From: Candidatus Hodarchaeota archaeon
GTDB lineage: Archaea > Asgardarchaeota > Lokiarchaeia > Sigyniarchaeales > SOKP01
Assembly: GCA_048887225.1 (NCBI GenBank)
Contig: JBHLJY010000012.1
Span: forward strand, 10,710-74,709
DNA length: 64,000 nucleotides
Reading direction: 5' to 3'
The translations under genes and the position numbers were made by a program. Every line of letters starts with the position of its first letter. Position 1 is the first letter of the stretch. Shown here one piece after another: positions 9,134 through 63,834 of the stretch. Under the pieces are notes generated by a model. It was not told where the DNA came from and made no database searches. It worked only from the letters and a program-made list of their open reading frames with translations.

Positions 9134-11209
9134 TTACACTTCCGCAGAATCTTTTACTAATCCAATACTACGATCTGAATCATACTTCTTCTCATCTATA
9201 ATGAGAATTTCTTCTACTTCTAATTTCTGAATGTTGATCATAGCTCCGAGTTGATTATTTGTAAAATGGTTTTGAATTAATGCTCCAGAGGGACACGCAG
9301 CAACACAAGTTCCGCATCCTTTACAGAGTGCAGGGTTTAGAACGGCAATCTTTTTGAATATATCAAAATCAATCGCACCAAAGGGACATAGAGATTGACA
9401 ACTCTTACATCCTGAACAAATATGATCAAGGACATTTGTGTAGAATGGTTCTATTTCGAATTCCCTATTTGCCATTAATACAGATGCGCTAGAAGCTGCG
9501 CCTTTCGCTTGAGCAACTGTATCAGGAATATCCTTTGGACCTTGAGCAACTCCAGCAACAAATATTCCATTCGTTAAGGTATCTACCGGTTTTAATTTTG
9601 GATGAGCTTCCATGAAAAATCCGTTCGAAGATCTCTGAATATTAAACATTTGAGAAACCTTATTGGCATCCGCTCTTGCTTCTAAAGCGGTAGATAAAAT
9701 TAACAATTCTACCTTTACTTCAATTAAATGTTGGTATAATGTATCTTCAGCTCTAATAATTATATTATGATCTTCATCTTCGCTAACTTCAGCAATTTTT
9801 CCTCTAATGTAATTAATACCATACTCTCTTGCAGCAGATTCGTAGAATTCTTCGTAGTCTTTACCGAACGCTCGGAGGTCGATATAAAAAATATATATTT
9901 CAGCCTCTGGATGTTTCTCTTTATATTGTCTAGCTTGCTTTGTCGCATACATACAACAAACTCTAGAACAATATTTATGACCTCCTTCTCTGAAATTTCT
10001 ACTGCCCACGCATTGGAGGAATGCAATACTATGGGGAGCTTTGAGATCAGAAGGTCTGACTGGTTTTCCTAATGTTGGACCATACGAACTTAATAAACGT
10101 TCCATTTGAAGTCCCGTGATTACGTTAGGACACGTGCCATATTTAAATTGTTCGAGTTCTGATGGATCAAATGAATCCCATCCAGTCGCAATAATAATTG
10201 TTCCAACTTGAATATCTAAATATTCAGGTTTTTCATTAAAATTAATGGCTTGAGCTTCGCAAACATTAAGCTTCGCGCAAATCCCACATTGAATGCATTT
10301 TTCCATATCAATTGTGTACTTTCCCGGTACCGCTTGTGGAAATGGTATATAAATGGCTTTCCTTGTACCCATGCCTAATTCAAATTCATTTCCACAGATT
10401 ATGGGACAAGTATCAACACAAGCACCACAAGCATTACATTTTTCTTGATCAACGTAATGCGGTTTTTTCTTTATGGTAATATTAAAATTTCCCACATATC
10501 CTGCCACATCCACAACCTCAGAATAGGCCATTACTTCAATATTTTCATTTCTTGCTACATCAACCATTCTAGGGGTTAATATACAAGCAGAACAATCCAT
10601 TGTAGGGAATGTTTTATCTAATTGGGTCATATGACCTCCTATTGTAGGACTTCTCTCAACTAAATAAACTTTATAACCTTCATCAGCAAGATCTAAAGCA
10701 GCATTCATACCTGCAATTCCGCCACCTACAACTAAACACGCAGGGTTTACTTTTACCTTTGTTACCTCTAAAGGTTCCAATTCTCTTGCCTTCGCAACTG
10801 CCATATTGATATGATCTTTTGCTATCTCATAGGCGCCTTTAGGATCTTTCATATTAACCCAAGAAGCATGTTCTCTGATATTTGCCATTTCAAATAAAAA
10901 CTGGTTTAAACCGGCTTCTTCACATGTTCGTCTGAAAGTAGGTTCATGCATCCTTGGTGAACAAGCAGCAACAACAACTCGATTAATAAAACCAGCCTCA
11001 ATATCTTTTTTAATTAGTTCTTGTCCAATATCACTACACATGAATTTATATTCTTGTGCTAAAATAACGTCAGGAAGGCTTAATGCATAATCTTTTAGTT
11101 TGAATAGATCTATCACTCCAGCAATATTAATACCACAATGACAAATATAAACACCGATTTTAGGTTTTTCCTTATTGCTAATTTCTATTTTTTCCTTAAT
11201 TTCTGTCAA
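9134..11209 (-). CDS. hdrA: Heterodisulfide reductase subunit A (second Cys-form copy)
   Basis: Full HdrA motif set, as in 3009-4997. Confidence 0.97.
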   Translation of the reverse strand: MTEIKEKIEISNKEKPKIGVYICHCGINIAGVIDLFKLKDYALSLPDVILAQEYKFMCSDIGQELIKKDIEAGFINRVVVAACSPRMHEPTFRRTCEEAGLNQFLFEMANIREHASWVNMKDPKGAYEIAKDHINMAVAKARELEPLEVTKVKVNPACLVVGGGIAGMNAALDLADEGYKVYLVERSPTIGGHMTQLDKTFPTMDCSACILTPRMVDVARNENIEVMAYSEVVDVAGYVGNFNITIKKKPHYVDQEKCNACGACVDTCPIICGNEFELGMGTRKAIYIPFPQAVPGKYTIDMEKCIQCGICAKLNVCEAQAINFNEKPEYLDIQVGTIIIATGWDSFDPSELEQFKYGTCPNVITGLQMERLLSSYGPTLGKPVRPSDLKAPHSIAFLQCVGSRNFREGGHKYCSRVCCMYATKQARQYKEKHPEAEIYIFYIDLRAFGKDYEEFYESAAREYGINYIRGKIAEVSEDEDHNIIIRAEDTLYQHLIEVKVELLILSTALEARADANKVSQMFNIQRSSNGFFMEAHPKLKPVDTLTNGIFVAGVAQGPKDIPDTVAQAKGAASSASVLMANREFEIEPFYTNVLDHICSGCKSCQSLCPFGAIDFDIFKKIAVLNPALCKGCGTCVAACPSGALIQNHFTNNQLGAMINIQKLEVEEILIIDEKKYDSDRSIGLVKDSAEV

Positions 11210-20381: not shown

Positions 20382-23300
20382 ATGCAAAAATTACAATCAA
20401 GTGTTTTAGTCATAGGCGGTGGGATTGCGGGCATCCAAGCATCTTTAGATCTCACAAAACTAGGTTTTAAAGTATATTTAGTTGAAATAAAACCTACCAT
20501 TGGAGGAACAATGGCACAATTAGACAAAACTTTTCCAACTCTTGATTGTAGTTTATGTATTTTAGCCCCCAAAATGGTCGAGATATATAGAAATCAAAAT
20601 ATTGAGTTATTTACCAATTCCTATATTGAAAAAATTGAAGGAGCTGCGGGAGATTATCGAGTAACGATGATAAAAATGCCGAGATATGTAAAAGAAGATG
20701 TTTGCAATGGATGTGGAGATTGTGCAAATATTTGCCCTGTAAGAGGTATTCCAAGCAAATTTGATATAAATCTAAAAACCCGTGGAGCTATATTTATCCC
20801 TTTTCCATCTTCAGTACCGCCTACTTATATAATTGATGAAACAAAATGTTTACTAATAAATTATGGAATTTGTAATTTATGTGCGAGAGTTTGTACCACC
20901 AATGCTATAGATTTTTTTCAAAAGAAGGAAGAAATAGTTTTAAATGTTGGAGCTATTGTCATTGCTACCGGTTATATCCAAAATATGCCAGGGATATATG
21001 AGAATCTTGCTGGAGAATCACGAAATGTATTATCAAGTATGCAATTTGAACGTTTATTATCCGCAAATGGTCCAACAAATGGAAATATTATAAGATTGGA
21101 TAATTATGAACGTCCAAAGTCAATTGCTTTTTTACAATGTGTTGGCTCACGAGATTTTCATCATCCTGAATGTAAGAAATATTGTTCTTCGATATGTTGT
21201 ATGGCTTCTGCTAAACAGGCAATCATCGTTAAAGAACATAATCCAGAAATTGAATGTTATATATTTAGTACTGAAATCAGAGCTAAGGGGAAAAACTTTT
21301 ATGAATTTATTGAAAGAAGTAAACATGAATATAATGTTATTTATATAAATGGTAAAGTTTCTCTTATTAAGAATTGTTCCGAAAATGGAAAATTAAAACT
21401 GTTTTATGAGGATATTGATGAGGGGATTGTGAGGACCTCAAAAGTAGATATGGCGATATTAGCAAGTGCGTTATTTCCACCTAAATCTTATTATGATCTT
21501 TTAAACCAGTTAAATGTAAGATATAATGAATTTGGTTTTATTAGAGATGATGATTTATATAGTCTCGAAAAGAAAAATATCTTTTTTATAGGTTATTCAA
21601 GAAATCCAAAAGATATTCCTTCCACTGTTGCTGAAGCCTCAGCGTGTGCTGCAAAAATTAGTGAAAGATTACACATTGTTAGATTTCAGAATGTAATCGA
21701 GTCCAAATATCCCCCTGAAATCCCTGTAAATCCTCAAGATGACCCGCGGGTTGGAATACTAATTTGTCGTTGCGGATCCAATATTGGAGGAATTGTAGAT
21801 GTTAAGAGAGTAGTTGATTATGTTTCAAAACTTCCTTACGTTGTTTATGCTGATGAAAATATGTATTCTTGCAGTTCTGATTCCCAGAAACTGATTAAAG
21901 ATATGATTTTGAAACATAATCTTAATAGATTTATAGTAGCTTCATGTACTCCTCGTACACATGAAAATCTCTTTAGAAATACACTCCGAGAGGTCGGATT
22001 AAATCCATATTTATTTGAATTAGTAAATATAAGAGATCAAGATTCTTGGGTACATCAAAATGAACCTGAACAAGCGACTAAAAAAGCTTGTGATTTAATT
22101 AGAATGTATCTTGCGAAAGTAATTAATTTGAAACCATTACAAAAAATTAAAGTTGAAGTCGAAAAGTCAGTATTAATTATAGGAGGTGGAATTGCAGGGA
22201 TTTTTTCTGCTAAAAATTTGGCAAATCAAGGTTTTGAAGTATACCTAATTGAAAGGGAGTCAATTTTAGGAGGCAGAGCTCTAGATTTTATAGATTTATA
22301 TCGTTTACCTTATATTAAAAATGACGTAATGAATACCATTAATGAATTAAAAAAAAAATCAACTGTACATATCTTATTAAATTCTGAAATAAGAGAGATA
22401 CGAGGATATGTCGGCAATTATAAAGTTATAGTAAAAAGCCATTCAAATGGAGTGAAAGAACATAAATTGAATATTGGTACAATAATAGTATCTATAGGTA
22501 CCAAGCAAAAAAGAGTTGAGAGATGGCATGATATATCAGAAAAAAATCCTATGCATGTCTTTACTCAATCAGATTTCATAAAAATTAATGATGAAAATAT
22601 CCCTAGTTTTAAAGATGCCACTATAATATTATGCGTAGATCAGAGAAAAAATGAATATAATAATGGAAATGACTCAAAGACCTATTGTTCTAATGTTTGT
22701 TGCAATATAGCATTAATGAACATCGAAAAATTGTTCCGATTGAATCCAAGAGCCCATATTCATGTTTTATATAGAGAATTGCAATTTTCAGATTTACATG
22801 CCGAAAAAATTGGGCGTGATATAAGAAAGAAAGTTCTTTTTGAAAGATATAGTTCAATTGATAATATAAAAATTTCTAAGAATACGAATCGTTTCAAGAT
22901 AAGATATTATAATGTTGGCGCTCAAACAGACATAGAATTTATTACTGATTTATTAATATTAGCAACACCGGCAATTCCAGAAAGGGGTACAGAAGAATTA
23001 GCAAAAATTTTAAAAGTTCCTACTACGAAAGATGGTTTTTTATTAGAGGCCCATGTAAAATTAAGACCAGTAGATTTCTCTACAGATGGTATATTTTTAT
23101 GTGGTGGAGCTCATTGGCCAAAATGGATTGACGAGAGTATTATTCAAGCATATGCAGCATCTGGAAGAGCAACAATGTTAATGGCAAATGGAGGGATAGA
23201 CACTGAATGTGTAACTGCTTATATGAATGAAGAAAAGTGCTTAGGGTGCGGCAGATGTGCTGAAATTTGTCCTTACAAAGCAATCGAACTAATTGATAAA

Positions 23301-23495
23301 ACCAAACAAATGGGATTATACACAATTAAAATGAAAAAAGCCCAGATTAATAGTGCCATTTGTAAGGGTTGCGGGTTATGTGTGGCAGAATGTTCGCTAG
23401 GGGCAATTGACCAAAACTTTTTTAGTAAATTGCAAATTAATAAGATGATTGAATTGTTGATTGGATTGGAAACAAAAGCAAAAGAATTTAATTAA
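20382..23495 (+). CDS. Large rearranged HdrA-family flavoprotein (two FAD-binding modules, internal N-terminal-type domain)
   Basis: Two GGGIAG motifs, internal ILICRCG..SCTPRTH..NIRDQ, EAHVKLRPVD and C-terminal ferredoxins. ATG at 20382 follows an AGGAGA SD. Confidence 0.92.
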   Translation: MQKLQSSVLVIGGGIAGIQASLDLTKLGFKVYLVEIKPTIGGTMAQLDKTFPTLDCSLCILAPKMVEIYRNQNIELFTNSYIEKIEGAAGDYRVTMIKMPRYVKEDVCNGCGDCANICPVRGIPSKFDINLKTRGAIFIPFPSSVPPTYIIDETKCLLINYGICNLCARVCTTNAIDFFQKKEEIVLNVGAIVIATGYIQNMPGIYENLAGESRNVLSSMQFERLLSANGPTNGNIIRLDNYERPKSIAFLQCVGSRDFHHPECKKYCSSICCMASAKQAIIVKEHNPEIECYIFSTEIRAKGKNFYEFIERSKHEYNVIYINGKVSLIKNCSENGKLKLFYEDIDEGIVRTSKVDMAILASALFPPKSYYDLLNQLNVRYNEFGFIRDDDLYSLEKKNIFFIGYSRNPKDIPSTVAEASACAAKISERLHIVRFQNVIESKYPPEIPVNPQDDPRVGILICRCGSNIGGIVDVKRVVDYVSKLPYVVYADENMYSCSSDSQKLIKDMILKHNLNRFIVASCTPRTHENLFRNTLREVGLNPYLFELVNIRDQDSWVHQNEPEQATKKACDLIRMYLAKVINLKPLQKIKVEVEKSVLIIGGGIAGIFSAKNLANQGFEVYLIERESILGGRALDFIDLYRLPYIKNDVMNTINELKKKSTVHILLNSEIREIRGYVGNYKVIVKSHSNGVKEHKLNIGTIIVSIGTKQKRVERWHDISEKNPMHVFTQSDFIKINDENIPSFKDATIILCVDQRKNEYNNGNDSKTYCSNVCCNIALMNIEKLFRLNPRAHIHVLYRELQFSDLHAEKIGRDIRKKVLFERYSSIDNIKISKNTNRFKIRYYNVGAQTDIEFITDLLILATPAIPERGTEELAKILKVPTTKDGFLLEAHVKLRPVDFSTDGIFLCGGAHWPKWIDESIIQAYAASGRATMLMANGGIDTECVTAYMNEEKCLGCGRCAEICPYKAIELIDKTKQMGLYTIKMKKAQINSAICKGCGLCVAECSLGAIDQNFFSKLQINKMIELLIGLETKAKEFN

Positions 23496-24407: not shown

Positions 24408-25889
24408 CTAACAGTTTTTTAGTATAGTTGGTTTACAATTATTCTTTTTTTCCATTGCGAGTTTTTCGATTAATAATTGACGTTTTCTTACATCTATTTT
24501 AGGATTTAATTTTACCAAACCTTTATCAATCGCTCTATGAAGAAGAAGCTCTCCTTTTTTGGTTCTAGTAATAACTGAAGACCATCCAGAATCTGAACCA
24601 ATCGCTCCTACAGAAATATCTGCAAATTCTGCTGTTAAATCAGAGCAATAATTACAAAAATTCGCAAAGTAAGATCGGCATTCTTTTAATGAAATAGATA
24701 TAATTTCTCCATTAATTAGATTTAGAAATAACCTACCTTTTTTGATATCCATTTTAACGACATCATCAAGCTCTAAATTAAACTTATATTTAATTAAATT
24801 CATCAAATTCTCATAAGTGAATGTTTTCATACAGAATAGACCAATTTTATATTTGATGTTGTCGAACATCCCCAAATTTAATGGCAAATGTTCTGCTTTT
24901 GCAAGAGCTCTAATTTTACATGGAAGTGCAACTATAGCGATTTTCTTATACTTTTTTGTTTTATTAAGTACAGATAGAATCGGAGCATTTGAATAAATGC
25001 TACCTTGGGTTTTATCCAAATATAGCTTGTTCTTAATGATTGCAATCTTAGGTTTCCAAAATTTTCTCGAATGTTTAACAGTTATAACAGCGTCAACTAG
25101 TTTCTCATCTAATAAATAATAAAGTAATGAACTAATTATGCCTCCATCCTGCTTTTTTTCGTTAAATTCATCTATTAAAGTCTTTGCTGAATATATCTTT
25201 TTATAGTATCCAAGGTTTTCCGTATAATTTAAAGAACTTTGAAAACTTTTTTTATAATTATATAATGGCTGATATGGAACTGAATGAGGACAAACACTAT
25301 AACATAAACCACATGTAATACATTCACTCTCATCTACATATACATAATTATCAGTTTGTTCAATAATATCAATTGGACAAATTGATAAACATAGCCCACA
25401 TCTGGTGCAAATACCACTATCATCAAATGTTAAAATCGATTTGAAATAATTTTCTTGAATTAGGTTTGCGTTGCGTTTGATCTGATATTTTTTTTCTAGT
25501 TTCTGTTCCAAAATCGAACTTCTCTCATCATTGTCCAATATAACCTCAGATTCAATGCTCTCATTAATTAATCCTTTATCTTTTAGATTTAAAATCTCAT
25601 AAATCGTATTAATGGAGGGAAAATCAAAAATTTCAACAATTCCCTCCAATGATAATGGTTGTTTTCCTTTTAACTTCTGAATGATGTATTTTCGCTTTGC
25701 TGCTTCATCTAATATCGATTTTAAAATTAAATTGAGGGTTTTTTCATCAAATTTCCCGTGTTCTAAAATACGTTTCCTTGCTTTAAATAAAGATCTAAAC
25801 TGAAAGTCATTTGAAGCCTTAAGGAAAGAAGTTTTCATCTTATCTGGTGGGATTCCTTTATAATTATAGAAATCACTTATTTTAATCAT
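24408..25889 (-). CDS. N-terminal winged-helix-like domain + ferredoxin + FrhB (F420-binding) family protein
   Basis: YIIQKLKGKQPLSLEGIVEIFDFPSINTIYEILNLKDKGLI; two CxxCxxC motifs; QDGGIIS, ALPC, IGLFC and CNYCSDLTAEFADISVG. Confidence 0.85.
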   Translation of the reverse strand: MIKISDFYNYKGIPPDKMKTSFLKASNDFQFRSLFKARKRILEHGKFDEKTLNLILKSILDEAAKRKYIIQKLKGKQPLSLEGIVEIFDFPSINTIYEILNLKDKGLINESIESEVILDNDERSSILEQKLEKKYQIKRNANLIQENYFKSILTFDDSGICTRCGLCLSICPIDIIEQTDNYVYVDESECITCGLCYSVCPHSVPYQPLYNYKKSFQSSLNYTENLGYYKKIYSAKTLIDEFNEKKQDGGIISSLLYYLLDEKLVDAVITVKHSRKFWKPKIAIIKNKLYLDKTQGSIYSNAPILSVLNKTKKYKKIAIVALPCKIRALAKAEHLPLNLGMFDNIKYKIGLFCMKTFTYENLMNLIKYKFNLELDDVVKMDIKKGRLFLNLINGEIISISLKECRSYFANFCNYCSDLTAEFADISVGAIGSDSGWSSVITRTKKGELLLHRAIDKGLVKLNPKIDVRKRQLLIEKLAMEKKNNCKPTILKNC

Positions 25890-25919
25890 ATTTTTTCATT
25901 CCTTCCTCTTTTTTAATTA

Positions 25920-26068
25920 GATCCTATTTATTGTAAAGAATTTTTTTTTTTACTTGATCCAAAATCGGCATTTTTTTATTAAATATCACAATAAATATAT
26001 ATGAGTTCGATCATTTAAATTTTAGGAAGCGATCATTTATTTTTTCATGATCGATAACATTCATGATC
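25920..26068. promoter_or_regulatory. GATC-motif cluster in the divergent promoter between the two FrhB-HTH genes
   Basis: GATC at 25920, 25956, 26009, 26031, 26049 and 26065. Confidence 0.55.
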
Positions 26069-26108
26069 AATAATTATAAAAATTTAAAGAAAATTTGTGG
26101 TTTGAAAA

Positions 26109-27545
26109 GTGTTAACAAAAGAAAATATGATAGAATATTTAGAATCTTATAATATAGGGTATGGGTTTCAGGATTTATGTGATTTAGTAATTAACAAAAA
26201 AAATTGTATATTTTGTGGAACATGTGCCTCACTTTGTCCCCGTATTGGGATTATAAAAAATAAACCGACCCTTTTAGAAAGCGATCCAGAATGTTCATTA
26301 TGTTCAAGATACTGTGCGAGAACTTACTTCCCTGAAGAGGTGTTTGAAAGAGAGATTTTCAATAATCAAAATCATCGGGATTTTATCTTAGGTTATTATC
26401 AAAAAGCAATAATAGCAAAAAGTACTGATGAAAGCATATTAAAGGTTGCCCAGAATGGTGGAGTGATAACAACATTACTTATTTATGCTTTGAATAAGGG
26501 ATTAATTGATGGAGTATTGCTTACTAATAGAGATGAAAATTGGTTACCCAAACCTTTTGTTGCGAGAACACCAGAAGAAATACTATCATGTTCAGGTTCA
26601 AAATATACTATAGCCCCTACCTTAATTTCATACAGTGATGCAATTCATGAATATGAACTTGAAAAACTTGCATTTGTAGGTATGCCTTGTCAAATTCTAG
26701 CAGCAAGAAAACTCCAATTATGTCCTCCATTATCAGATAAATTAGGTCAATTTAAAATAATTATTGGAATTTTTTGTTCAGTAAATTATAAATATGATTT
26801 AATAGAAAAGATTTTTGTACAGGATTTAAACAAAAAATTGGAGAATGTTAGTAAATTTGATATTTCAGATGGAATATTGTCAGTTATTTCAAAAGATGGT
26901 AGTATAATAAAACTCTCAACTAAATATATTAAAGAATTCATTTGGCCCAGTTGTCGATATTGTAAAGATTTTACTTCCGAATATGCTGATATCTCAGTTG
27001 GTAATGTAGGTGCTCCCTCTGGAGATTTTAATAGCCTTATTGTACGTTCTGATATAGGTAAATCTTTACTGGATAATGCCATCTCTGAAAAGAGAATTAT
27101 AACAACTAATACAATTGATCTTGCAAAAATTAAAATGGAATCTTTAAGAAAGAAATCAGAAATAACTAAAGTTGATAAAAAGATTATTTCTGCCTTGAGA
27201 TTTTTTAATATCCCTGATCTTGAAGCAAAAGTTTATGCCACGTTAATCTCTTTAGGATATACTAATATTGCTCTGCTTAGTGACGTAATGAAAATGGAGT
27301 ATAAAAAAATCTACAAAGCTTTGGAAAAGTTAAAGCGACGTAAATGGATTGTTGAGTTTAATGGTGGCTACAGAACAATTAATCCAATTCAAGTTATGAA
27401 AAATGAAATAACTAAATTCAAAGCCAATTTAGAAAAAAAAATTAATAAATTCAAATCTGAGGTTTTAAAAGAGTTAGAGATCCTTTTTTTACAAAACAAT
27501 ATTCAGCATATAAAATATAATGAATACAATGATTTTTTCTACTGA
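26109..27545 (+). CDS. FrhB-family protein fused to a C-terminal TrmB-type HTH
   Basis: QNGGVIT, GSKY, VGMPCQ, IGIFC and CRYCKDFTSEYADISVG, then IPDLEAKVYATLISLG...IYKALEKLKRRKWIVE...YRTINP. Confidence 0.88.
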   Translation: MLTKENMIEYLESYNIGYGFQDLCDLVINKKNCIFCGTCASLCPRIGIIKNKPTLLESDPECSLCSRYCARTYFPEEVFEREIFNNQNHRDFILGYYQKAIIAKSTDESILKVAQNGGVITTLLIYALNKGLIDGVLLTNRDENWLPKPFVARTPEEILSCSGSKYTIAPTLISYSDAIHEYELEKLAFVGMPCQILAARKLQLCPPLSDKLGQFKIIIGIFCSVNYKYDLIEKIFVQDLNKKLENVSKFDISDGILSVISKDGSIIKLSTKYIKEFIWPSCRYCKDFTSEYADISVGNVGAPSGDFNSLIVRSDIGKSLLDNAISEKRIITTNTIDLAKIKMESLRKKSEITKVDKKIISALRFFNIPDLEAKVYATLISLGYTNIALLSDVMKMEYKKIYKALEKLKRRKWIVEFNGGYRTINPIQVMKNEITKFKANLEKKINKFKSEVLKELEILFLQNNIQHIKYNEYNDFFY

Positions 27546-27662
27546 AAATAAAAAATATACAAAATTCTTTATAATAATAAATAATCTAATCAACAGTAGT
27601 TGCTATAGAATTTTCTTTTAGTAAGATTCCAATTTGATATGGCAAAAATAATTGATATAATC

Positions 27663-28082
27663 CTATTTAATTATATCTGTTATGAAACAAGTTTCTACAA
27701 TATGTATACCTTCTATTTGGCTTATTTTCTCTTCAAGTAAAGGATTGAATTGCTCTAACGAGGGGATTTCAACCATTATAAATAGACCACAATCTCCGCT
27801 TAAACGCCAAATATTATTTATCTCATCTATTTTTTTCAATTCTGTTAAAATCCTCTTAATATCCTTGAAGTTTGGCTCAATTTTTACTGTTGCCCTAGTT
27901 TTAGGTTTCGAATTAACCTCATAATCTATTGTAAATCTTATAATTATTCCATCTTCAATTAATTTTTTCACACGACGACGAACTGTAGCTTCTGTTTTCC
28001 CTATTTTGTGAGAAATTTCATTAAAGGAAATTCTACTATCTTGTTTTAATTCCTCAAGTATTTTAAGATCTATTATATCCAT
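27663..28082 (-). CDS. Lrp/AsnC family transcriptional regulator
   Basis: MDIIDLKILEELKQDSRISFNEIS...TVRRRVKKLIEDGII; C-terminal RAM domain. Confidence 0.95.
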   Translation of the reverse strand: MDIIDLKILEELKQDSRISFNEISHKIGKTEATVRRRVKKLIEDGIIIRFTIDYEVNSKPKTRATVKIEPNFKDIKRILTELKKIDEINNIWRLSGDCGLFIMVEIPSLEQFNPLLEEKISQIEGIHIVETCFITDIIK

Positions 28083-28406
28083 TTTTCACTACCTAATATT
28101 TTTTTTTATAATTTGGAAATAATTCGAGTAATATTTAATAAAACTGTTATTTCTAATTATAAAAAGGTAAAACAAATTATTAAATTTTATCATTTCATTA
28201 TCTGATGTAAAGATCTTTTTATTAGAAATAAAAAAAATATCTGAAAAATAAAAATTAATTTCTGAATTTGAAAATTTCAAATGATGAAATGAATTTATTT
28301 AGAACACAATTTATAATTTTCAGTCAATACTTTCAAAAAAAAATTAATATTTTTTAAGATCTAATTTTGAGATTATTAATGAATATTTTAGAATTGCCAA
28401 TTGATT

Positions 28407-29498
28407 TTAAAAATCTTGATATCGCTTTATTTTTAAACGTGAATATTTTATAAGTAGATCTTTCATTTCATTTTTTTTTGATGCCTCTAGATCTATGCAC
28501 TTAATCACTCCTGTCTCTAATGCTTTTGAAATAAGATCTGCGCCTTTTTTAGTACGAGTTAAAACTGTTGTAAATTTATCTGATGATGCTAATCCTCCAA
28601 ATGAAATATCTGCATAGATATTAGTAAAATCATAGCAAGAATAACAAGCAGCGCGCATATAGGTATTTAATCGATGAAAAGGAATATGAAGGATTTTTTG
28701 CCCATTATTATTTAATTTGAGTCTTAAATCTTCTTTAATGTTTATCTTTTCAATTTTTTCAAATTTAATATGAAATTCTTTTTCAAAATTCTTTATCTTG
28801 AGTTTATCAAAAAAGAAATTTTCATAGCAAAATAATCCTAAACAAATCTCAATGTTTTGTGAAGGCACAACTCCTAAATTTTGCATGCATCTAATAGTAT
28901 AAATTTGACATGGTGTCCCCACAACTGCCAATTTTTTAAATTTATAATGATTTAATTTAGGAATTGATTGAGTATAAGTATTAAATTCTTTTATTTTATC
29001 CAATTGTGAAGAAATATCTAGTTTAATACCCGATGCCTCGATTAAGTCTTCCTTATTTTTAGCAAGTATAGCTTCTCGGGAAAAGGGGGACTTAGAATTT
29101 GCTACAATTGCACCATCAATTATTTTCTTTTTTATTAAATAATCTATAATTGAATTTACAACACCGCCATCAGTTCCGTATTTTAAAAAATCTCTGTCCA
29201 TGGCTTGACAAGAATAGATATCGCGAAAAAATCCAATTGGCATGGAATAAAACTCTGAAAAATTATGTATTTTATTTAAGTCATCATCTAAAATATGTGT
29301 TTGTGGACAAATGCAATAACAAATCCCGCATTCGAGGCATTTTTCTTCATTTATAAATTTTGGAGGTGAGTTTAAATCTTTAAATTCAATAATATCATAG
29401 TCCGCTGAACTACAAAAACTTACACACCCCCCACATTGTTGACAAATCCCTAAATCATGAACTTCTTTAATCAAATCTTTAAATCCTTTTGGGTTCAT
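28407..29498 (-). CDS. Stand-alone FrhB/FdhB-family F420-interacting subunit with ferredoxin domain
   Basis: CQQCGGCVSFC, TDGGVV, VVGTPCQ, LGLFCYENF and CYSCYDFTNIYADISFG motifs. Confidence 0.9.
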   Translation of the reverse strand: MNPKGFKDLIKEVHDLGICQQCGGCVSFCSSADYDIIEFKDLNSPPKFINEEKCLECGICYCICPQTHILDDDLNKIHNFSEFYSMPIGFFRDIYSCQAMDRDFLKYGTDGGVVNSIIDYLIKKKIIDGAIVANSKSPFSREAILAKNKEDLIEASGIKLDISSQLDKIKEFNTYTQSIPKLNHYKFKKLAVVGTPCQIYTIRCMQNLGVVPSQNIEICLGLFCYENFFFDKLKIKNFEKEFHIKFEKIEKINIKEDLRLKLNNNGQKILHIPFHRLNTYMRAACYSCYDFTNIYADISFGGLASSDKFTTVLTRTKKGADLISKALETGVIKCIDLEASKKNEMKDLLIKYSRLKIKRYQDF

Positions 29499-29544: not shown

Positions 29545-29615
29545 TCCGAAAGCCCACACTAAGGGCTAGTTCCCTTTCAACTAAGATTTATTTGGAAGGG
29601 GCATTCTATTTCGGA
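29545..29615 (-). promoter_or_regulatory. Structured 3'-UTR element after Sec-hdrA (SECIS candidate)
   Basis: UCCGAAA/UUUCGGA outer stem enclosing CCCUUCCAA/UUGAAAGGG and AGCCC/GGGCU hairpins. GC-rich island in AT-rich DNA. Confidence 0.55.
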
Positions 29616-29630
29616 TTAAATCTATTGAGA

Positions 29631-31682
29631 TTAGTTAATTATTTCACCTTTTCTTTTAATTTCATCAATAATTTCTTCCGATTTCTTTTTTAAGCTAATA
29701 TGATCTATAGTGTCAGCATATTCGACGTCATAACTACAAATACCCTTAATTTCTTCTACTATTTGATTATCTCGATAATATATAAGATCGATAGCTCTTG
29801 ACGGACAGGATGTTACTCAAATCCCACAGCCCTTACATTTTAACTCGTCAACTATAGCTGCATTATCAGGACCTACTTTTATGGCTTGATATTCACATAA
29901 TTTTTCACACCTATGACAACCCATACATAGATATGAGTTAACTTCTACGATAATTAACTCCTGTATTATCGAGTCCTTCGAAAATAAAGTTGCTACCTTA
30001 CTTGCTGCTGCTAATGCCGTCGATACAGAATATGGTATATTTTTTGGTCCAACCGCACATCCACATATATATATGCCAGTATTCTTTGTTTCTTGAGGTT
30101 TTAAACACCCATGTATTTCTGTTATAAATCCATTTGGATCTTTTCCTAATCCAAAGATCTCAACAATTTTATCTGTCGTTATTGATGGAACTATTCCTGT
30201 GGATAAAATAACTAAATCCACGTCAAGATTAATCATATCACCAGTTAAAGTTGAAGATGCATGAATCTTTAATTGGTTTGTTTCTGGATCCTCCTTGATT
30301 TCTCCTACTTTTCCACGAATCATTAAAATACCTAGTTCTCTTGCTTTTCTATAGTATTCTTCATTTCCTTTATCAGGTGTTCTTATATCTATATAGAAAA
30401 TGATAATTTCCATTTCAGGGTATTCTTGCTTTAACAATTGAGCATTTTTAAGAGCAACACATCATCAAACAATTGAACAATACGGATTCCCTTTTAAAGA
30501 TCTCGAACCTACACATTGTATCATCGCAACCTTTTTAGGTGCCTTTCCATCAGAAATTCGACATAATTTGCCTCCTGTTGGTCCAACAGGACTTAACATT
30601 CTCTCCAATTCTATTTGTGTAATAACATTAGGATAAATTCCATAGTTATAGTCATTATTTTCATTAATTTGATATTCATCCCAGCCAATAGCTACGATTA
30701 TTGCTCCAATATTAACATTAATGTATTCAGGTTTTTGATTGAAATCAATTGCATCAGCTACACAATTTTTCTGGCAACTTTTACAACCAATACATGCATC
30801 TTTATCGATAAGAGCAACTTTTGGGACAGCTTGAGGGAAGGGAACATAAATAGCGTTCCTTTTCCCTAAACCCCTATCAAATTCATTAGGGATTTTTATC
30901 GGGCATTTTGTTGTACATAAACCACAGCCAGTACATTTTCTTTCTTTTACATAACGAGGATTTTTTCTAATTTTCACATTGTAATTTCCTGGAATCCCAC
31001 TGAATTCAATAATTTCGCTATAAGTAAATAGATTTATATTTGGGTGTTTATAAGTATTAACCATTATTGGAGCAAGAACTCAAATCGCACAATCGTCTGT
31101 AGGATAAATCCGATCTAACTGTGCCATTTTTCCTCCAATGGTAGGTTCTTTTTCAACTAAATAAACAATAATTCCTTGATTCGCTAGATCTAAGGCAGCA
31201 TTCATACCAGCTATTCCAGCACCTATGACTAACGCTGCTTTTTTTACTGAAATTTTTTTACAAGGGATGATTTCTAAATTACGAGCTCGATTTATACCTG
31301 CTTTTACTAATCTTTTTGCTTTTTCTGTCGCACTTTCTGGATCATCTGAATGAACAAATGAACACTGTTCTCGAAGATTAACCATTTGAAAATAGTATGG
31401 ACTTAATCCAGTTTCATCCAAAACACTCCTATATGTTTCTTCATGAATTTTTGGCGTACAAGCAGCAACAACTATTCTGTTTAAATCTAATTGTAATATA
31501 TCTTTTTTAATGATTTCCTGCCCTGGATCACTACATGTAAAATCATTACATCTAGAAATAATTACATTGGGTAATGTTATAACAAAATCCCTCACGATAA
31601 TACAATCAATCGTTGCACCAATATTAACACCTCATCTACAAATATATACTCCAATTCGAATATTGGTCTGTTCTTCAGACAT
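29631..31682 (-). CDS. hdrA: Selenocysteine-containing HdrA, 683 aa, five in-frame UGA (codons 17, 201, 406, 407, 622)
   Basis: Three track ORFs plus flanks lie in one frame. UGA at 31632, 31080, 30465, 30462 and 29817 give ICRUG, DCAIUVL, CSIVUUC and CGIUVTSCP, where the paralogs have Cys. Confidence 0.9.
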
Positions 31683-32253: not shown

Positions 32254-34803
32254 TTGGATATTTATTCTATAATTTCTCATCCATTTAGGCGAAAAATTCT
32301 ATTACTTTTAGAAATTGAAGGCTATATTCCTTATAGTGACTTAATGGAAAAATTAGGATTAGATACAACGGGGCAGCTTAATTTTCATCTGAAAAAATTA
32401 GGAACCCTCATCAATAAGGATAGAAAATCCTACTATCTTACTGAAGATGGAAAAAGAGTAATTAAAATAATGAATATAAATAAGCGTATTTTATTTGGAG
32501 AGAATATGGATGAATATTTAAATTCGAAAGGAAGCGAGATAACCCGTGTAGGAGTTATAATTTGTAATTGTAATACAGAAATTTCAAATGTTTTTAATAT
32601 CATATCACTTCAGAATTATATCAATAAATTAAAGAATGTAGTATCTGTAAAGGTTTTTGAAAATTTATGTCAAGAGAAGAACTTTAAGAAGATTACAGAT
32701 TGGGTGAGGGAGAACTTCTTAAATAAAATAATTATTGCTGCGTGTTCCCCAAAAACACATCAGCATCTTTTTGAACGAATTTTTGATGATGTTATTGACC
32801 ATTCAAATATAGAAATCGCTAATATAAGAGAGCAATGTGCTTGGGTGCATCAGTCTAACTCTGATCATATCGATACCGCTCTTACTTTAGAAAAAGCTCG
32901 ACTACTAATTGAAGCGGCAATTGAACGAGTTACATTGCAAAAAATCGTAAAAGTTAAGAGAGTAGAAGTAGAAAAAAGTTGTGCCATTTTAGGAGGAGGG
33001 ATTGCAGGAATGACTCTTGCTTTAAATTTAGCACGCGCAGGCATTAAAGTACATCTTATTGAAAAATCACCTACATTAGGAGGTAAAGTCGCTAGATGGC
33101 ACCGAATATCAAATATCGGGGATTGTTCAATATGCTTTATCTCGGAATTAATAGGAGAATTAGTGAATGAAAAAAATATAAAAATACAAACAAATACGGA
33201 ATTTGTTGATGTATCAGGAGGAGTTGGAGATTTTTCTATAGAGTTGATTAAAAAACCTCGATATGTTGATGTGAAAAAATGTACTGGTTGTAAACAATGT
33301 ATCGATGTTTGTAGTATAGAAAAACCTAATCAATATGAATATGGTTTAACAAATCGAAAAATCATCTATATTCCTTTTATTCATTCTTACCCATACGCTC
33401 CATTAATTGATGAAGCTGACCTTAAAAATTGTCTCAACTGTAGAATATGTGAAAGAGCATGCGTAAATAAAGCAATTGATCTGGATCAAAAACCAAAAAG
33501 AGTAAAAATCAAGGTTGGTGCAAAAGTTATAGCAATTGGTTCTGATCTTTACTTTGATTTAGAAAAATATCATTATAATCCTCAGAATGATATTATAACA
33601 ACACCTGAATTCGAGCGAATGCTTTCATCAGATGGTTTTACCGATGGCGAGATATTAAAGGTCTCTGATAAAATCCCTCCAAAAACTATTTCAATTATCC
33701 AATGTGTGGGACCTTCAGATAGCAAATGTGAATTTAATTATATCTTGGCGTTAAAATATTTAGAATCTATTAAACAGAAAATTCCTAATTGTATAGTTAA
33801 TGTCTTTTATGATTTGAGTCAATTAAGAGAAAATAATAATTTTTTATTTAAATCTACAGATCCTAGATTTCACTATATAAATAAGCTTGAAATTATTGAT
33901 AGAAATAATCAAAAATTTGTTAAAGCAGATGCAGAGGAATTTCAGAGTGATTTAATAATTCTAAATATAACGATGGTACCAAATAAAGATTTAAAATCAC
34001 TGCGAAAAACAATGGATTTTACATTGGATGACTATGGCTTTATGAGCGAAGATACATTAACATCTGGAATCTATGGAGTTGGTACGATTTTTGGCCAATT
34101 AAATTATAATTCTACGATATCAACTGCGAACAATGTAGCTTTAAAAATAATTTCATTATTATCGAAAGATTTTTTAATCGCGGAATTTAGTGGAATTGAT
34201 ATCAACGAAGAATTATGCGGTTTATGTGGATTATGTTTGAAAACATGTCCATATAATGCTCTAACTATCGAATCAGATGTTATTACTATTGATAAATTTA
34301 AATGTAAAGGATGTGGCACTTGTGTAAGTGTTTGTCCTACAAATGCCATTGAAATGAATCTTGATACTTCTGAAAAAATTATTAAAACTATAGAAGTTTT
34401 TTCAAAATTTAAAAAAAGACCAAAAATTATCGCTTTTTGTTGTCGTTCATGTGGTTATGCTGCTGCTGATGATGCGGGTTTAAAAAAAAAATATTATATT
34501 CCAAATACATTTATCGTTCGAGTGCCATGTACCGGTCGTATTGATACAAATTTTATCATTAAATCTTTCGAAAATGGTTTTGATGGAGTAATAATTATCG
34601 GTTGTAGAAAAAATTCTTGTAGATACATTGATGGAATACAAAAAGCAAAAAAAAAAGTTCAATTATTAAAGAATATACTAAGATCGGGGTATAAAGAACG
34701 AATACTTCTTGAACATATGAATGCTGTTGAGGGGAATAAATTTGCTGAGATTGTTAATGAATTTTATGATAAAATAAAGGAGGAGATTAAATTTGAAGCC
34801 TAG
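32254..34803 (+). CDS. Fusion: ArsR-type wHTH + divergent HdrA + MvhD
   Basis: SHPFRRKILLLL...YSDLMEKLGLDTTGQLNFHLKKLG...YYLTEDGK; then GVIICNC, ACSPKTH, NIREQCAWVH, GGGIAG; C-terminal FCCRSCGYAAAD, RVPCTGR, GC..SCRY. Confidence 0.92.
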   Translation: MDIYSIISHPFRRKILLLLEIEGYIPYSDLMEKLGLDTTGQLNFHLKKLGTLINKDRKSYYLTEDGKRVIKIMNINKRILFGENMDEYLNSKGSEITRVGVIICNCNTEISNVFNIISLQNYINKLKNVVSVKVFENLCQEKNFKKITDWVRENFLNKIIIAACSPKTHQHLFERIFDDVIDHSNIEIANIREQCAWVHQSNSDHIDTALTLEKARLLIEAAIERVTLQKIVKVKRVEVEKSCAILGGGIAGMTLALNLARAGIKVHLIEKSPTLGGKVARWHRISNIGDCSICFISELIGELVNEKNIKIQTNTEFVDVSGGVGDFSIELIKKPRYVDVKKCTGCKQCIDVCSIEKPNQYEYGLTNRKIIYIPFIHSYPYAPLIDEADLKNCLNCRICERACVNKAIDLDQKPKRVKIKVGAKVIAIGSDLYFDLEKYHYNPQNDIITTPEFERMLSSDGFTDGEILKVSDKIPPKTISIIQCVGPSDSKCEFNYILALKYLESIKQKIPNCIVNVFYDLSQLRENNNFLFKSTDPRFHYINKLEIIDRNNQKFVKADAEEFQSDLIILNITMVPNKDLKSLRKTMDFTLDDYGFMSEDTLTSGIYGVGTIFGQLNYNSTISTANNVALKIISLLSKDFLIAEFSGIDINEELCGLCGLCLKTCPYNALTIESDVITIDKFKCKGCGTCVSVCPTNAIEMNLDTSEKIIKTIEVFSKFKKRPKIIAFCCRSCGYAAADDAGLKKKYYIPNTFIVRVPCTGRIDTNFIIKSFENGFDGVIIIGCRKNSCRYIDGIQKAKKKVQLLKNILRSGYKERILLEHMNAVEGNKFAEIVNEFYDKIKEEIKFEA

Positions 34804-42419: not shown

Positions 42420-45134
42420 TTAAATTATTGGAAGAGAAAAGTAAAATCTGCTGCCTTTATCTTTCCCTTCAGATTCTGCCCAAATTTTTCCACCATGCAA
42501 TTCCACGATTTTTTTAGAAATATATAATCCAAGTCCAGATCCTTTTATATCAATATCCCAACCTTCACCATATCTTTCAATCTTACCAAATTGTTTAAAT
42601 AATTTGCTTTTCTCCTCTTTGGTGAATCCAATTCCTTTATCTTCTATACAAATTACATAAAATTTTTCTTTTATTTCTGATTTAATCGTTATCTCTCCAC
42701 CAGGAGGAGTGTATTTAATGGCGTTTGTTAATAAGTTTGAAACAACTTCATACATTTTCTCTTTATCGAACGAAGCTGTTAAATATTCGTGAATATTTAA
42801 TATGATTTTCTGATTTCTAAGTTCCAACATTCCCCGCAAATCTCGCAAAACAAATTTAATTAGAAAAGTTAAATCTTCTGTTGATTTATTTAACTCAAGA
42901 AGTCCTTGTTCTAATCTCGAACTTTCAAGAAGTGCATTAATATTTTCTTCCAAACGTATGCCTCCTTCCTTTATATCTTCTATAATTGAGATCATATCTG
43001 TATCTAATTTGGAAGAGTGGAGTGTGAGTAAGAGATCAGTAAAGCCTTTAATTGCGATAAGAGGTGTCTTTAGTTCATGTGAGGTTCTAGATAATAACTC
43101 CGTCTTAAGCTTATTTTGTTCCTCTAAATGTTGTTGTACTTGCCATCTTCTCTGCTCTATCTCAATTGCGTCGGATATTAAAAATAATACTAATACATCT
43201 TGGTGGTCTAGATATGGATTTTCTCGATGAAAAACACATATTCCACTATTATATTCTTCTTCTTGTGACTTAATTAATTTACCAAAACAACCTTTTGCTT
43301 TTTTCTCTTTAATATATCGATCAGTCATAGCATAGTTAGTTTCATTTATATTAATAAATGTTTGAGTATAATCGTGATCTGCTTGAAACAATTCGCTAAT
43401 AATGAAATGATTTTCAAATTCTTCAGAATCTAAAATTAAACTCTCTTTATCACTTGACATTAATTGGTATTTTTCAATTCCATTTTGTATTTGTCGATAA
43501 CAATATAATACAACTTCTGCATTTAATAATTTACAACAAGTTTCAAGTAACATTTCAATATTGTTTTGGACATCTGTGGTGAAATTCAAAAAATTTACAT
43601 TTAATTCGTAAATAAGCCTCTCATACATCTTTTTCTCTGTGATATCATCCAGCCACATAACAAAACCTATTAATTCTCCTTTATCGTTGTATTGATTCAA
43701 TCTGTTGCCTTTGACCCATTTTAGATTTCCATTTTTATCATATAGTCTAAATTCAACTTCTTCAGTCTCAGTTGCTTTATAAAACGTTTTAATATCTTCA
43801 GGATGAATGATCTTTTCAAAAATCGTTTTATCTAAAGTTTTTTCTTTCTTGTAGCCCAGAATATTTAATAACTTAGGGTTAGTATATTTAATATTTTTCA
43901 CTCTAAAATCATATTCCAATATTCCCATTAATGATTGCTCCGTAATCATTCTAAATTTTTTTTCAGAATCTTTTAGTTTTTGTTCAGTGATCTTTAAATC
44001 TGTAATATCTGTCCACGAACCAATAGTCTCTATTGGGTTTCCGTTTTCGTCTTTAATTAGTTTAGCTTCATCACGCATCCAATGATAAGTTCCGTCTTTA
44101 AATTTAAAGCGATAGTCGTAGATTATATTTCCCTTTTCAGGTAATATTGAGAGTTTTGATAAAACTTCTTCTGTATCTTCTGGATGAATATTATTTAGCC
44201 AAAAATCTGAATATTTTATGAAGTCTTCAGATATATAACCTGTTTGAGCCTCTACATTTTCACTAATAAATGTAGCACTGTAATCCCCTGATGCTTTAGA
44301 AGTATAAATCATCATTGGACTTGATGAAATAAGATATTTAAATCGTTCTTCAGATTCTTTTAATTTTTGATCCTTCATTTTTCTTTCAGTTATATCTCTT
44401 GAAATAGTAAGACCTTTTACTAATCCATCCTTATTTCTAAATGCTCTGCCTCTAACTTCTATCCAAATATAAGTCCCATCTTTCTTTCTATATCTTAATT
44501 CTGCCTTTCCTTCACCATATTTTAAACGTTCTTTTATAAGATTTGCTATCTCGTTTGCATTGTCAGGATGGATAAATTTTAAAAATGGCTTCCCCATTAA
44601 ATCCTTTTTTGAATATCCTAATACTCTTTTGTGAACTTCTTCATTAATAAATTCAAATCTTAATTTCTCGTTAAAAACTGCAATCAAATCGTTTGCGTGT
44701 TCTGAAATTACTCTATAAGTCTCTTCACTTAGTTCTAAATTCTTGTATTTGGATAGATCTTTTAGAATTAAAAGCAATTTTTTTTGGTGATTATCATCTC
44801 TGAATGGTTTTATTTTACATTCAAACCACTTAAATTCACCGTTTATGTTTTTAATTCTCAGTTCTTCGTAAACAGCTTCAATGTCTACGCTTTTCTTTAA
44901 TACGGTAAGAAATTTATTTGAATCATCTGGATACATAAAATCCAAAATCGATTGTTCGATTAAATCTTTGCTTGAATATCCTAATGATTTCAGAAATAGC
45001 GGTTCATTAATATATTCAAATCTGAAAAAATCGTGGGATTCAACGATAGCAATTAAATCGTTGATATTTTCAATAATTAATGGATATATATTAAAAGTGT
45101 TAGGTTTTAAACCAATCATAGTTTTCTCTTCCAC
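42420..45134 (-). CDS. Multi-PAS sensor histidine kinase
   Basis: Four PAS/PAC repeats; H-box SHELKTPL; NLLTNAIKYT; DKGIG; GSGLGL. Confidence 0.95.
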   Translation of the reverse strand: MEEKTMIGLKPNTFNIYPLIIENINDLIAIVESHDFFRFEYINEPLFLKSLGYSSKDLIEQSILDFMYPDDSNKFLTVLKKSVDIEAVYEELRIKNINGEFKWFECKIKPFRDDNHQKKLLLILKDLSKYKNLELSEETYRVISEHANDLIAVFNEKLRFEFINEEVHKRVLGYSKKDLMGKPFLKFIHPDNANEIANLIKERLKYGEGKAELRYRKKDGTYIWIEVRGRAFRNKDGLVKGLTISRDITERKMKDQKLKESEERFKYLISSSPMMIYTSKASGDYSATFISENVEAQTGYISEDFIKYSDFWLNNIHPEDTEEVLSKLSILPEKGNIIYDYRFKFKDGTYHWMRDEAKLIKDENGNPIETIGSWTDITDLKITEQKLKDSEKKFRMITEQSLMGILEYDFRVKNIKYTNPKLLNILGYKKEKTLDKTIFEKIIHPEDIKTFYKATETEEVEFRLYDKNGNLKWVKGNRLNQYNDKGELIGFVMWLDDITEKKMYERLIYELNVNFLNFTTDVQNNIEMLLETCCKLLNAEVVLYCYRQIQNGIEKYQLMSSDKESLILDSEEFENHFIISELFQADHDYTQTFININETNYAMTDRYIKEKKAKGCFGKLIKSQEEEYNSGICVFHRENPYLDHQDVLVLFLISDAIEIEQRRWQVQQHLEEQNKLKTELLSRTSHELKTPLIAIKGFTDLLLTLHSSKLDTDMISIIEDIKEGGIRLEENINALLESSRLEQGLLELNKSTEDLTFLIKFVLRDLRGMLELRNQKIILNIHEYLTASFDKEKMYEVVSNLLTNAIKYTPPGGEITIKSEIKEKFYVICIEDKGIGFTKEEKSKLFKQFGKIERYGEGWDIDIKGSGLGLYISKKIVELHGGKIWAESEGKDKGSRFYFSLPII

Positions 45135-61006: not shown

Positions 61007-62317
61007 ATGGTCAAAGTAGCATTTATGCAACTCTCAGATTGTTGGGGGTGCCACCAGAGCTTAGTAAATTTACATTTAAGTCTCTTACCGGTACTTCCTG
61101 CTCTTGAGATTGTATATTGGCCAGCTGTAGTCGATTTTAAACATGATTCTTTAGTAGCTAGAGCTGACGGAGAGATCATTGTAGGTTTTATCGAAGGTTC
61201 AATTAGAACTAAACAAGACTTAGAAAATGTTAAACTGATGAGACAAAAAAGTGCAATCATAGTAGTTTTTGGTTCTTGCGCTTGCTACGGTAATGTAGCT
61301 GGATTAGCCAACCAATGGGAGATTAGTGAATGCATTGATAGAAAATTCAATACGGTAGAGAGTAAAAGTTCTGGTGGTGGAGAGCCTATACAACATGTTC
61401 CTGGATTTGAATCAAAGATAGTAAACGTTGATGAAGTCATCAAGGTTGATGCTTATATGGCAGGATGCCCTCCAAAGCCAGAACATATTTTCAGTGCAGT
61501 AGGATTTTTACTAGGTCAAAAGCCATTCCCTATGAATGATCTTGCTTTTTGTAATGATTGTTCATTAAATCAATCGGGATGTCTCTTAGATGCTGGTAAA
61601 TTATGTTTTGGCCCAATTACCAGCATTGGCTGTTCGATGAAATGTCCTAATGCAGGTAATCCTTGTGTGGGATGTATGGGACCTGCTAAAACGGTTGCTG
61701 CCCGCGCTTTAAAGTTAAACGATATGACTAAAAACCTCGCTTCCGCAAGTTCCGGTGATATAAAGAGCACGTATGAATTTCTCACGTTATTTTTAAACGT
61801 GCCATTAATGGCGGGTTTTGACTTAGTAGGGGATATTCTAAAACAAGTAAAGAAGACGGGTGCTCCAACAACTCCATTAGCAAACTTACCACCTGATACA
61901 GAAACTATTGCTTCTAATATATTAGGATTTTTAAGGGGCAATCGAGACTTCACAGAGATCTCAAATGTTTGCGATACATGTGATAGGATTATCGGCAGTA
62001 AATCAACGATGACGAACGTGAAGAGAGATTATGAGGGGCTTCCAAATTTAGATGATTGTTTAATTGAACAAGGTTATATTTGTATGGGTCCCGTTACCAA
62101 AGCTGGCTGTGGTGCTTTATGTGTTCGGGTTAATGCTCCATGTACAGGTTGTTATGGCCAAACTGAATGGGGTGTTAATCAAGCAGAAAGGTTTGCTGAT
62201 ACGGTACTTAAAGGATTTAACGTAAGCTTATCTAAAGAAGCTTTACTTGCTCAGGTTAAAGATCCTATTGGTACTTTCGAGAAATTTACATTAGCATCAA
62301 GAAAAGGAGGCGTATAA
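61007..62317 (+). CDS. mvhG: MvhG/VhuG small subunit with a duplicated C-terminal Fe-S domain
   Basis: SDCWGC, EGSIR, GSCACYG and GCPP motifs; two C..C...CL...C.GP.T..GC...C...PC.GC blocks. Confidence 0.92.
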   Translation: MVKVAFMQLSDCWGCHQSLVNLHLSLLPVLPALEIVYWPAVVDFKHDSLVARADGEIIVGFIEGSIRTKQDLENVKLMRQKSAIIVVFGSCACYGNVAGLANQWEISECIDRKFNTVESKSSGGGEPIQHVPGFESKIVNVDEVIKVDAYMAGCPPKPEHIFSAVGFLLGQKPFPMNDLAFCNDCSLNQSGCLLDAGKLCFGPITSIGCSMKCPNAGNPCVGCMGPAKTVAARALKLNDMTKNLASASSGDIKSTYEFLTLFLNVPLMAGFDLVGDILKQVKKTGAPTTPLANLPPDTETIASNILGFLRGNRDFTEISNVCDTCDRIIGSKSTMTNVKRDYEGLPNLDDCLIEQGYICMGPVTKAGCGALCVRVNAPCTGCYGQTEWGVNQAERFADTVLKGFNVSLSKEALLAQVKDPIGTFEKFTLASRKGGV

Positions 62318-63626: not shown

Positions 63627-63662
63627 TCTAAATCAAAATTAATATAGAGTGTGAAAAAAAAG

Positions 63663-63812
63663 ATGAGTGATATACCAGAAGGAGTAGTAAATGTCTTAGA
63701 AATGATAGTCCGCTGTTTTGACTGCTGACTATCGTGTGCCGCTCACATCACAGTTGTTGATGAGAATGGTAAAGAAATTTACTCTCGTGAGATGCATGTT
63801 GGTTTAGGATGA
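63663..63812 (+). CDS. vhuU: VhuU selenopeptide (49 aa, Sec at codon 22; not in ORF track)
   Basis: MSDIPEGVVNVLEMIVRCFDCULSCAAHITVVDENGKEIYSREMHVGLG. The UGA at 63726 occupies the first Cys of the DPCxxCxxH motif. Confidence 0.9.
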
Positions 63813-63834
63813 AATATCTAATAAAAATTATAGA

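Follow-up and report, generated by a model that had tools for sequence, protein, structure and literature searches.

A probable selenoprotein gene of the HdrA family with five in-frame TGA codons, two of them adjacent, in a Candidatus Hodarchaeota archaeon

An HdrA reading frame that meets TGA five times, twice in adjacent codons, raises the question of whether the gene is decaying or whether its UGA codons are decoded as selenocysteine (Sec). The frame lies within a 64,000-nucleotide stretch of contig JBHLJY010000012.1 of a Candidatus Hodarchaeota genome; this whole stretch, the window, was analysed, and all coordinates below refer to it unless a contig or locus is named.

A single HdrA frame and its TGA codons

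The coding sequence and its TGA codons are the following.

29631-31682, minus strand: hdrA coding sequence (683 codons and a TAA stop), with type-I HdrA architecture and five TGA codons in frame
31632-31634, minus strand: TGA codon 17 (CRU), equivalent to C13 of 5ODC, in the N-terminal cluster domain
31080-31082, minus strand: TGA codon 201 (DCAIU), the canonical HdrA Sec site, equivalent to Cys/Sec197
30462-30467, minus strand: tandem TGA-TGA, codons 406-407 (SIVUUC), equivalent to C403/C404, in the CVGSR...YCSxVCC motif of the thioredoxin-reductase domain
29817-29819, minus strand: TGA codon 622 (CKGCGIUVTSCP), third Cys of the last CxxCxxCxxxCP ferredoxin motif, equivalent to C623 of 5ODC

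Translation of 29631-31682 revealed no TAA, TAG or frameshift within the frame. A preliminary description of this DNA had proposed one frame broken by TGA alone, with an extra Cys after the tandem pair, and had expected annotation pipelines to fragment it; the frame, whose strand it had left unstated, and the UUC triplet are as it described, and ordinary ORF calling breaks the gene into pieces of 171, 199 and 206 aa.

By sequence comparison, the gene belongs unambiguously to the HdrA family. In a search of solved structures, residues 8-648 matched residues 4-649 of 5ODC_A, the HdrA of Methanothermococcus thermolithotrophicus, with E=2.6e-215, and Pfam domains Pyr_redox_2, NAD_binding_8 and FAD_binding_2 were found together with 4Fe-4S ferredoxin domains. 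The FAD-associated residues E356 and K409 of 5ODC, whose roles in HdrA have been described (PMC12054007), align with E360 and K412. The columns of the five TGA codons are those of C13, C197, C403, C404 and C623 of 5ODC_A, and in the Cys sets for six clusters (the N-terminal domain, the CVGSR...YCSxxCC motif, two ferredoxin domains and Cys197) every position is either Cys or TGA.

In an alignment of eight paralogs from the same genome, all five TGA columns hold Cys or TGA, as they do in about 95 homologs taken from related genomes and from metagenomes. Only 36 of the 338 single-base changes that could create a stop codon in hdrA convert Cys to TGA, so the chance that five out of five would fall on Cys is about 1.4e-5, and that of three out of three for the unusual sites (406, 407 and 622) about 1.2e-3. 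Of 244 columns with conservation of 97% or more across the family, hdrA keeps 239; between U201 and U406 it keeps 80 of 84, and between U407 and U622, 75 of 76. The C-terminal tail of HdrA is variable in all members. The dN/dS ratio was 0.08-0.15 in segments 18-200, 202-405 and 408-621 (Nei-Gojobori, six homologs, dS near saturation), and 0.11-0.16 against the closest relative (L162) over residues 18-385, with a dS of 0.3. The placement of each TGA on a conserved Cys, as first described, is thus confirmed by the paralogs, the homologs and 5ODC_A; Cys and UGA alternate in these columns, and dN/dS downstream of the UGAs is not elevated, at about 0.1. Together with the Sec machinery described below, the conserved Cys positions and the purifying selection downstream favour the view, already taken in the preliminary description, of an HdrA selenoprotein gene rather than a random pseudogene.

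Sec machinery and SECIS element

The source genome is a MAG of 3.27 Mb in 49 contigs, 98% complete. It encodes a Sec-containing SelD with one TGA in frame, a SepSecS (490 bits), an EFSec/SelB (249 bits, above cut-off) and a PSTK-like protein whose score, 156 bits, is under the curated cut-off of 290 bits. A tRNA-Sec gene completes the set, all components that had been named for verification being present.

Contig C4 of the source genome (G000), 44554-44706, locus L170: tRNA-Sec gene, 70 nt upstream of SepSecS, detected by nhmmer and ARAGORN

An nhmmer profile made from three tRNA-Sec genes of sister families matched C4:44581-44675 with E=2e-10. The gene contains two inserts of about 30 nt each, in the D-arm and in the T-loop, and ARAGORN calls a tRNA-SeC with anticodon TCA once both introns are removed in silico. 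These introns account for the failure of standard tools: neither Rfam RF01852 nor ARAGORN found tRNA-Sec in the raw genome, with the same result in all nine genomes of the genus, and a simple hairpin scanner did not find it either. Surveys of the Sec trait based on tRNA would therefore score the genus negative. TGA terminates 203 of the 1435 long open frames genome-wide (14%); it is a normal stop codon, which rules out a genome-wide reassignment.

A SECIS element, overlooked in the preliminary description, is present in the spacer between hdrA and the next gene, 26 nt after the hdrA stop codon. It consists of the following parts.

29545-29615, minus strand: 3'UTR SECIS of Loki type, in a three-way junction, identified by a covariance model and by homologs behind related hdrA genes
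29610-29615/29545-29550, minus strand: outer stem
29601-29604, minus strand: core, AUGC
29592-29600/29572-29580, minus strand: 9-bp stem with one C.A mismatch
29581-29591, minus strand: 11-nt loop, AUAAAUCUUAG
29570-29571, minus strand: 3' AA
29551-29567, minus strand: second hairpin

The spacer before frhB reads AATAGA-AUGC-CCCUUCCAA-AUAAAUCUUAG-UUGAAAGGG-AA-CUAGCC, and the 3' arm is identical in the closest paralog. A covariance model built from 65 related elements, from which this gene's own element was left out, matched 29564-29610 (minus strand) with 54.0 bits and E=1.8e-9, the second highest score among the seven SECIS matched by the model in the sources searched; the model detected no further SECIS near hdrA or frhB. 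An Rfam scan of 27-36 kb gave noise only, with no match to a SECIS family, and the spacer, folded by itself, had no significant MFE (z = -0.5); the element is therefore recognised by homology and not by folding energy. An AT-rich hairpin with ATGA behind frhB (about 28150-28200) was discarded as a chance structure, its stem and loop having the wrong sizes and no match to the model.

The 3' GA/AA, the 9-bp stem, the 11-nt A-rich loop and the position just past the coding sequence are those of a Loki-type SECIS, and the loop variant AUAAA and the single stem mismatch are within the variation of the 65 relatives. The 5' core, AUGA in this type, reads AUGC. In a scan without core constraint, AUGA was found in 76 of 77 elements of other loci, the sole AUGC being that of the hdrA element, and AUGA is the core of all ten other lokiSECIS-shaped elements with an AUGN core in the source genome. 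In eukaryotic SECIS, the corresponding core A belongs to the essential GA quartet (PMC11227280). The 3' partner of the deviant position varies in the lineage, being G or A, so the core site may tolerate change. The deviant base, C at 29601 (minus strand), abuts a CCC run and may be an assembly or consensus error, in which case the selenoprotein interpretation would be stronger. As the sequence stands, the atypical core makes present-day function less certain than the preliminary description had assumed.

The outer stem and the second hairpin are undamaged in the hdrA SECIS. Across the 66 elements, the hdrA element included, the outer stem (UCCGAA/UUCGGA) occurs in 61 and the second 3' hairpin (AACCC...GGGUU) in 65, and by eye both show paired changes on their two sides in the printed sequences. 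Other examples of a SECIS in a three-way junction are L153:6411-6505 and L161:5411-5505.

Locus layout and Sec positions among relatives

The published HdrA genes with several Sec are followed by vhuD. No vhuD was found downstream of the five-TGA hdrA, nor were hdrBC found next to it, its neighbours being FrhB-like genes and an HTH-HdrA-MvhD fusion. The first gene downstream is the following.

28407-29498, minus strand: FrhB/FdhB-family gene, 363 aa (Pfam FrhB_FdhB_C 6.4e-36, FrhB_FdhB_N 2e-13)

The tandem of HdrA and VhuD that shares one SECIS is thus missing here. The four other Sec-HdrA paralogs of the genome have their SECIS about 475-520 nt downstream, behind vhuD, and in the published Loki form: AUGA, a stem of 9 bp, an A-rich loop of 11 nt, and GA or AA. 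About 25 related loci have the SECIS straight after hdrA and lack vhuD; in the VhuD-less hdrA genes of L153, L158 and L161 the element comes directly after the stop codon and has the canonical AUGA core. Related Sec-hdrA loci are flanked, like the source locus, by FrhB genes and an HTH-HdrA-MvhD fusion, FrhB genes being adjacent to related hdrA genes in L153, L156, L158, L160, L161 and L171. The FrhB gene noted on the same strand in the preliminary description therefore recurs in the subfamily. Since cofH, cofD and cofE are also present in the genome, all above cut-offs, use of F420 is plausible, and the FrhB-like protein is a plausible, possibly F420-linked, partner of HdrA.

The window is unusually dense in Hdr and FrhB genes. 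It holds at least four further HdrA-family genes of the Cys type (3045-4979, 9194-11164, 20391-23456 and 32254-34803), of which two are full-length, one is a long fused form and one is the HTH-HdrA-MvhD fusion, and three FrhB-family genes lie within 24408-29498. It also contains a small selenoprotein gene of another kind.

63651-63850, plus strand: gene for a VhuU-type selenopeptide, 56 aa (...RCFDCULSCAAH...)

This gene follows those of the small (61007-62317) and large (62322-63626) subunits of a [NiFe] hydrogenase and has its own SECIS (63803-63850, 42 bits), in which the core is offset by one base (AUGAA).

The preliminary description had considered Sec outside the DCxxU position of HdrA to be undescribed. 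This is not supported: Loki HdrA with up to four Sec, at five possible positions, was published in 2016 (Mariotti et al., 2016; PMC4989117), and the class is therefore known. Several of the individual sites are also familiar in relatives. Sec at 17 occurs in nearly all relatives of the clade, 17 plus 201 being the rule, and many genes of the VhuD-less HdrA subfamily have Sec at one of the two sites 406 and 407, with a normal SECIS. Many gene-caller fragments have the size of the UGA201-UGA406 piece (199-200 aa) and end in ...YCSxV or ...YCSxVC; their contigs carry hdrA genes in which Sec at 17 and 201 is joined by Sec at one of 406 and 407. These cases are scattered on the tree, which points to recurrent gains of Sec at 406/407. 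Further Sec sites seen are positions 50, 75, 257, 300 and 303.

Two related loci carry Sec codons at such further positions. The VhuD-less HdrA of L165 (G204:C40:1-1956) has a TGA at 257, the third Cys of the first inserted-ferredoxin motif (CTGCGIUTTKCP), on a contig that stops before position 406. In a sister species of the same genus, locus L175 (G009:C7:35700-39200) encodes an HdrA paralog, about 51% identical, with five TGA codons at Cys 17, 50, 75, 201 and 303. From the latter pattern, the N-terminal cluster could have Sec at most, or even all, of its ligand positions. This gene and the related loci also mean that five Sec, the VhuD-less layout and Sec on Fe-S Cys are not unique to the source gene.

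What appears to be new, judging from these comparisons, is the tandem UGA-UGA and a Sec622 with no neighbouring Cys; the rest appears to be known. Among 400 Asgard species genomes, the source gene was the sole hdrA with adjacent UGA-UGA, and the sole other match for Sec at the 622 site was in a different motif. A pattern scan for tandem UGA-UGA in 185,579 GTDB species genomes gave 22 matches, none of them HdrA. The HdrA sequences in the supplement of Huang et al. (2024) include no adjacent Sec pair and just one Sec at 407, the literature yielded no usable precedent for adjacent Sec, and no gene-caller fragment of the size expected from Sec622 was found. No ortholog with more than 78% identity was detected in 40 relatives or 80 JGI metagenome loci. 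The closest relative, L162 (ENA ERZ27271168 k141_53000), is 88-90% identical and ends at residue 385, in adapter: it is a contig of 1180 nt that ends in an Illumina adapter, and the adapter is translated into the last ~15 residues of the deposited protein. For codons 386-683 there is no ortholog above 78% identity, so UGA406, UGA407 and UGA622 are seen in one assembly only. The preliminary description had regarded UGAs unique to this assembly as evidence against a selenoprotein; codons 17 and 201 are common in relatives, while 406 and 407 together, and 622, occur here alone among the sequences searched.

Alternative explanations and comparison with known systems

We consider it probable that hdrA is a genuine selenoprotein gene encoding a full-length type-I HdrA, in which five conserved Cys codons have become UGA and are decoded as Sec. 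Type-I HdrA is the electron-bifurcating subunit with FAD and six [4Fe-4S] clusters. The gene belongs to an Asgard HdrA subfamily that lost vhuD, has its own SECIS and repeatedly exchanged Cys for Sec at Fe-S-ligand positions; here the single Loki-type SECIS in the 3'UTR would direct recoding of five UGAs located 0.2-2.0 kb upstream, two of them adjacent. The predicted product is an HdrA with Se in place of S at five positions. U17 would belong to the N-terminal cluster domain, and U201 would occupy position 197, a ligand site between protomers; U406 and U407 would stand side by side in the cluster motif next to the bifurcating FAD, and the last ferredoxin motif would contain U622. Going by the conserved motifs and the description of 5ODC, 406 and 407 (C403/C404) would both be ligands of the thioredoxin-reductase-domain cluster, and 622 a ligand of a ferredoxin cluster. 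Actual Sec insertion and Se-Fe ligation are what we infer from the sequence. The fullest version, in which the whole frame is translated, one SECIS inserts a vicinal Sec-Sec, the flavin-side [4Fe-4S] cluster has two Se ligands and two other clusters carry more Se, is put forward tentatively, as somewhat doubtful.

The SECIS core leaves room for a different history, in which an A-to-C change at this position ended recoding, so that translation now stops at codon 17 of an early pseudogene. We regard this as unlikely, though deserving serious consideration, as AUGC is the sole exception among 77 elements, the several Sec-HdrA and Cys-HdrA paralogs of the genome could compensate for the loss, and the extra UGAs are unique to the source genome. 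It is opposed by the integrity of everything else: the SECIS retains its flanks, outer stem and second hairpin as well as its 9-bp stem and 11-nt loop, the frame is neither shifted nor broken by TAA or TAG, every segment retains its conserved residues, and dN/dS against the closest relative is 0.11-0.16. Any decay must therefore be very recent, and even then the three additional UGAs would have arisen while recoding still worked.

It is very improbable that assembly or consensus errors created the three unusual TGAs, or some of them, the true gene being an ordinary two- or three-Sec HdrA. The source is a MAG of 49 contigs and no second sequence supports the three sites; but three independent substitutions would be needed, each producing TGA on a conserved Cys (a chance of ~1e-3 given three stop-creating errors), in a gene that otherwise looks undamaged and whose relatives do have Sec at 406, at 407 or at a ferredoxin-motif Cys. 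We give equally little credence to the UGAs being decoded, through near-cognate reading or a suppressor, as one of the standard amino acids (Cys or Trp): the genome has a complete Sec pathway with tRNA-Sec and SECIS, TGA is a normal stop codon, and ARAGORN, which found 32 tRNAs and missed the intron-bearing tRNA-Sec, reported no suppressor tRNA. In conclusion, this is a real and striking gene, but an extreme member of a published class, and the unusual core base leaves its recoding signal in some doubt.

The gene is the extreme of a trend: in Asgard HdrA, Cys-to-Sec replacement recurs at at least 10 Fe-S-ligand positions (17, 50, 75, 201, 257, 300, 303, 406, 407 and 622), a pattern that points to very processive recoding and to tolerance of, or selection for, Se on electron-transfer clusters. 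Two features would lend themselves to testing ideas about how selenoproteins are synthesised and how redox properties are tuned in flavin-based electron bifurcation: the decoding of adjacent UGA-UGA and a [4Fe-4S] cluster with two Se ligands. As gene callers split hdrA and miss the intron-containing tRNA-Sec, the selenoproteome and the Hdr inventory of the genome are mis-annotated.

One of the closest known systems is the multi-Sec Loki HdrA (PMC4989117; surveyed in PMC11227280), which has in common with the source gene several UGAs at conserved Cys positions, always including the canonical site at about 200, and one eukaryote-like SECIS for UGAs spread across ~2 kb; a single element there serves up to six UGAs, and one of the described Sec falls in the last Fe-S motif, next to an additional Cys (PMC4989117). 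In the published loci, hdrA is described as always followed by vhuD, with the shared SECIS behind vhuD, whereas the source gene has its own SECIS and no vhuD. It also differs in its predicted five Sec, the adjacent pair, a Sec622 without compensating Cys and the AUGC core. The Sec-HdrA of Methanococcales (VhuD-HdrA), whose Cys form is the solved 5ODC, shares the fold, the domain order, Sec at the 197-equivalent and the equivalents of E356/K409, but has one Sec and a SECIS of euryarchaeal type, whereas the source gene would have four more Sec and a Loki-type SECIS. Cys197 is a ligand of the N-terminal cluster in the other protomer (PMC9012536), and Sec197 was seen in the cryo-EM structure of M. 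maripaludis, where it may form a selenylsulfide relay (PMC13518236). The preliminary description had likewise stated Sec at DCxxU in Methanococcales.

Parallels also exist in other selenoproteins. In [NiFeSe] hydrogenase and formate dehydrogenase, Sec likewise stands in place of a metal-coordinating Cys; those enzymes carry a single Sec and catalytic Ni or Mo/W, whereas HdrA would have, judging from the motif, up to two Se per electron-transfer [4Fe-4S] cluster. Eukaryotic selenoprotein P (SelenoP) resembles the source gene in having many UGAs per mRNA, processive decoding and a 3'UTR SECIS with a kink-turn-type core. The UGAs of SelenoP are closely spaced. SelenoP transports Se, has two SECIS and depends on SBP2, a protein not known from Asgard archaea (PMC11227280), whereas the source gene encodes a predicted Fe-S flavoenzyme and has one SECIS. 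A 2026 review gives prokaryotic selenoproteins at most 2-3 Sec (PMC13188914). If all five UGAs were indeed decoded as Sec, this HdrA would be the most Sec-rich prokaryotic protein in the literature searched, it would show that back-to-back UGAs are recoded in nature, and its AUGC_AA core would be a working one.
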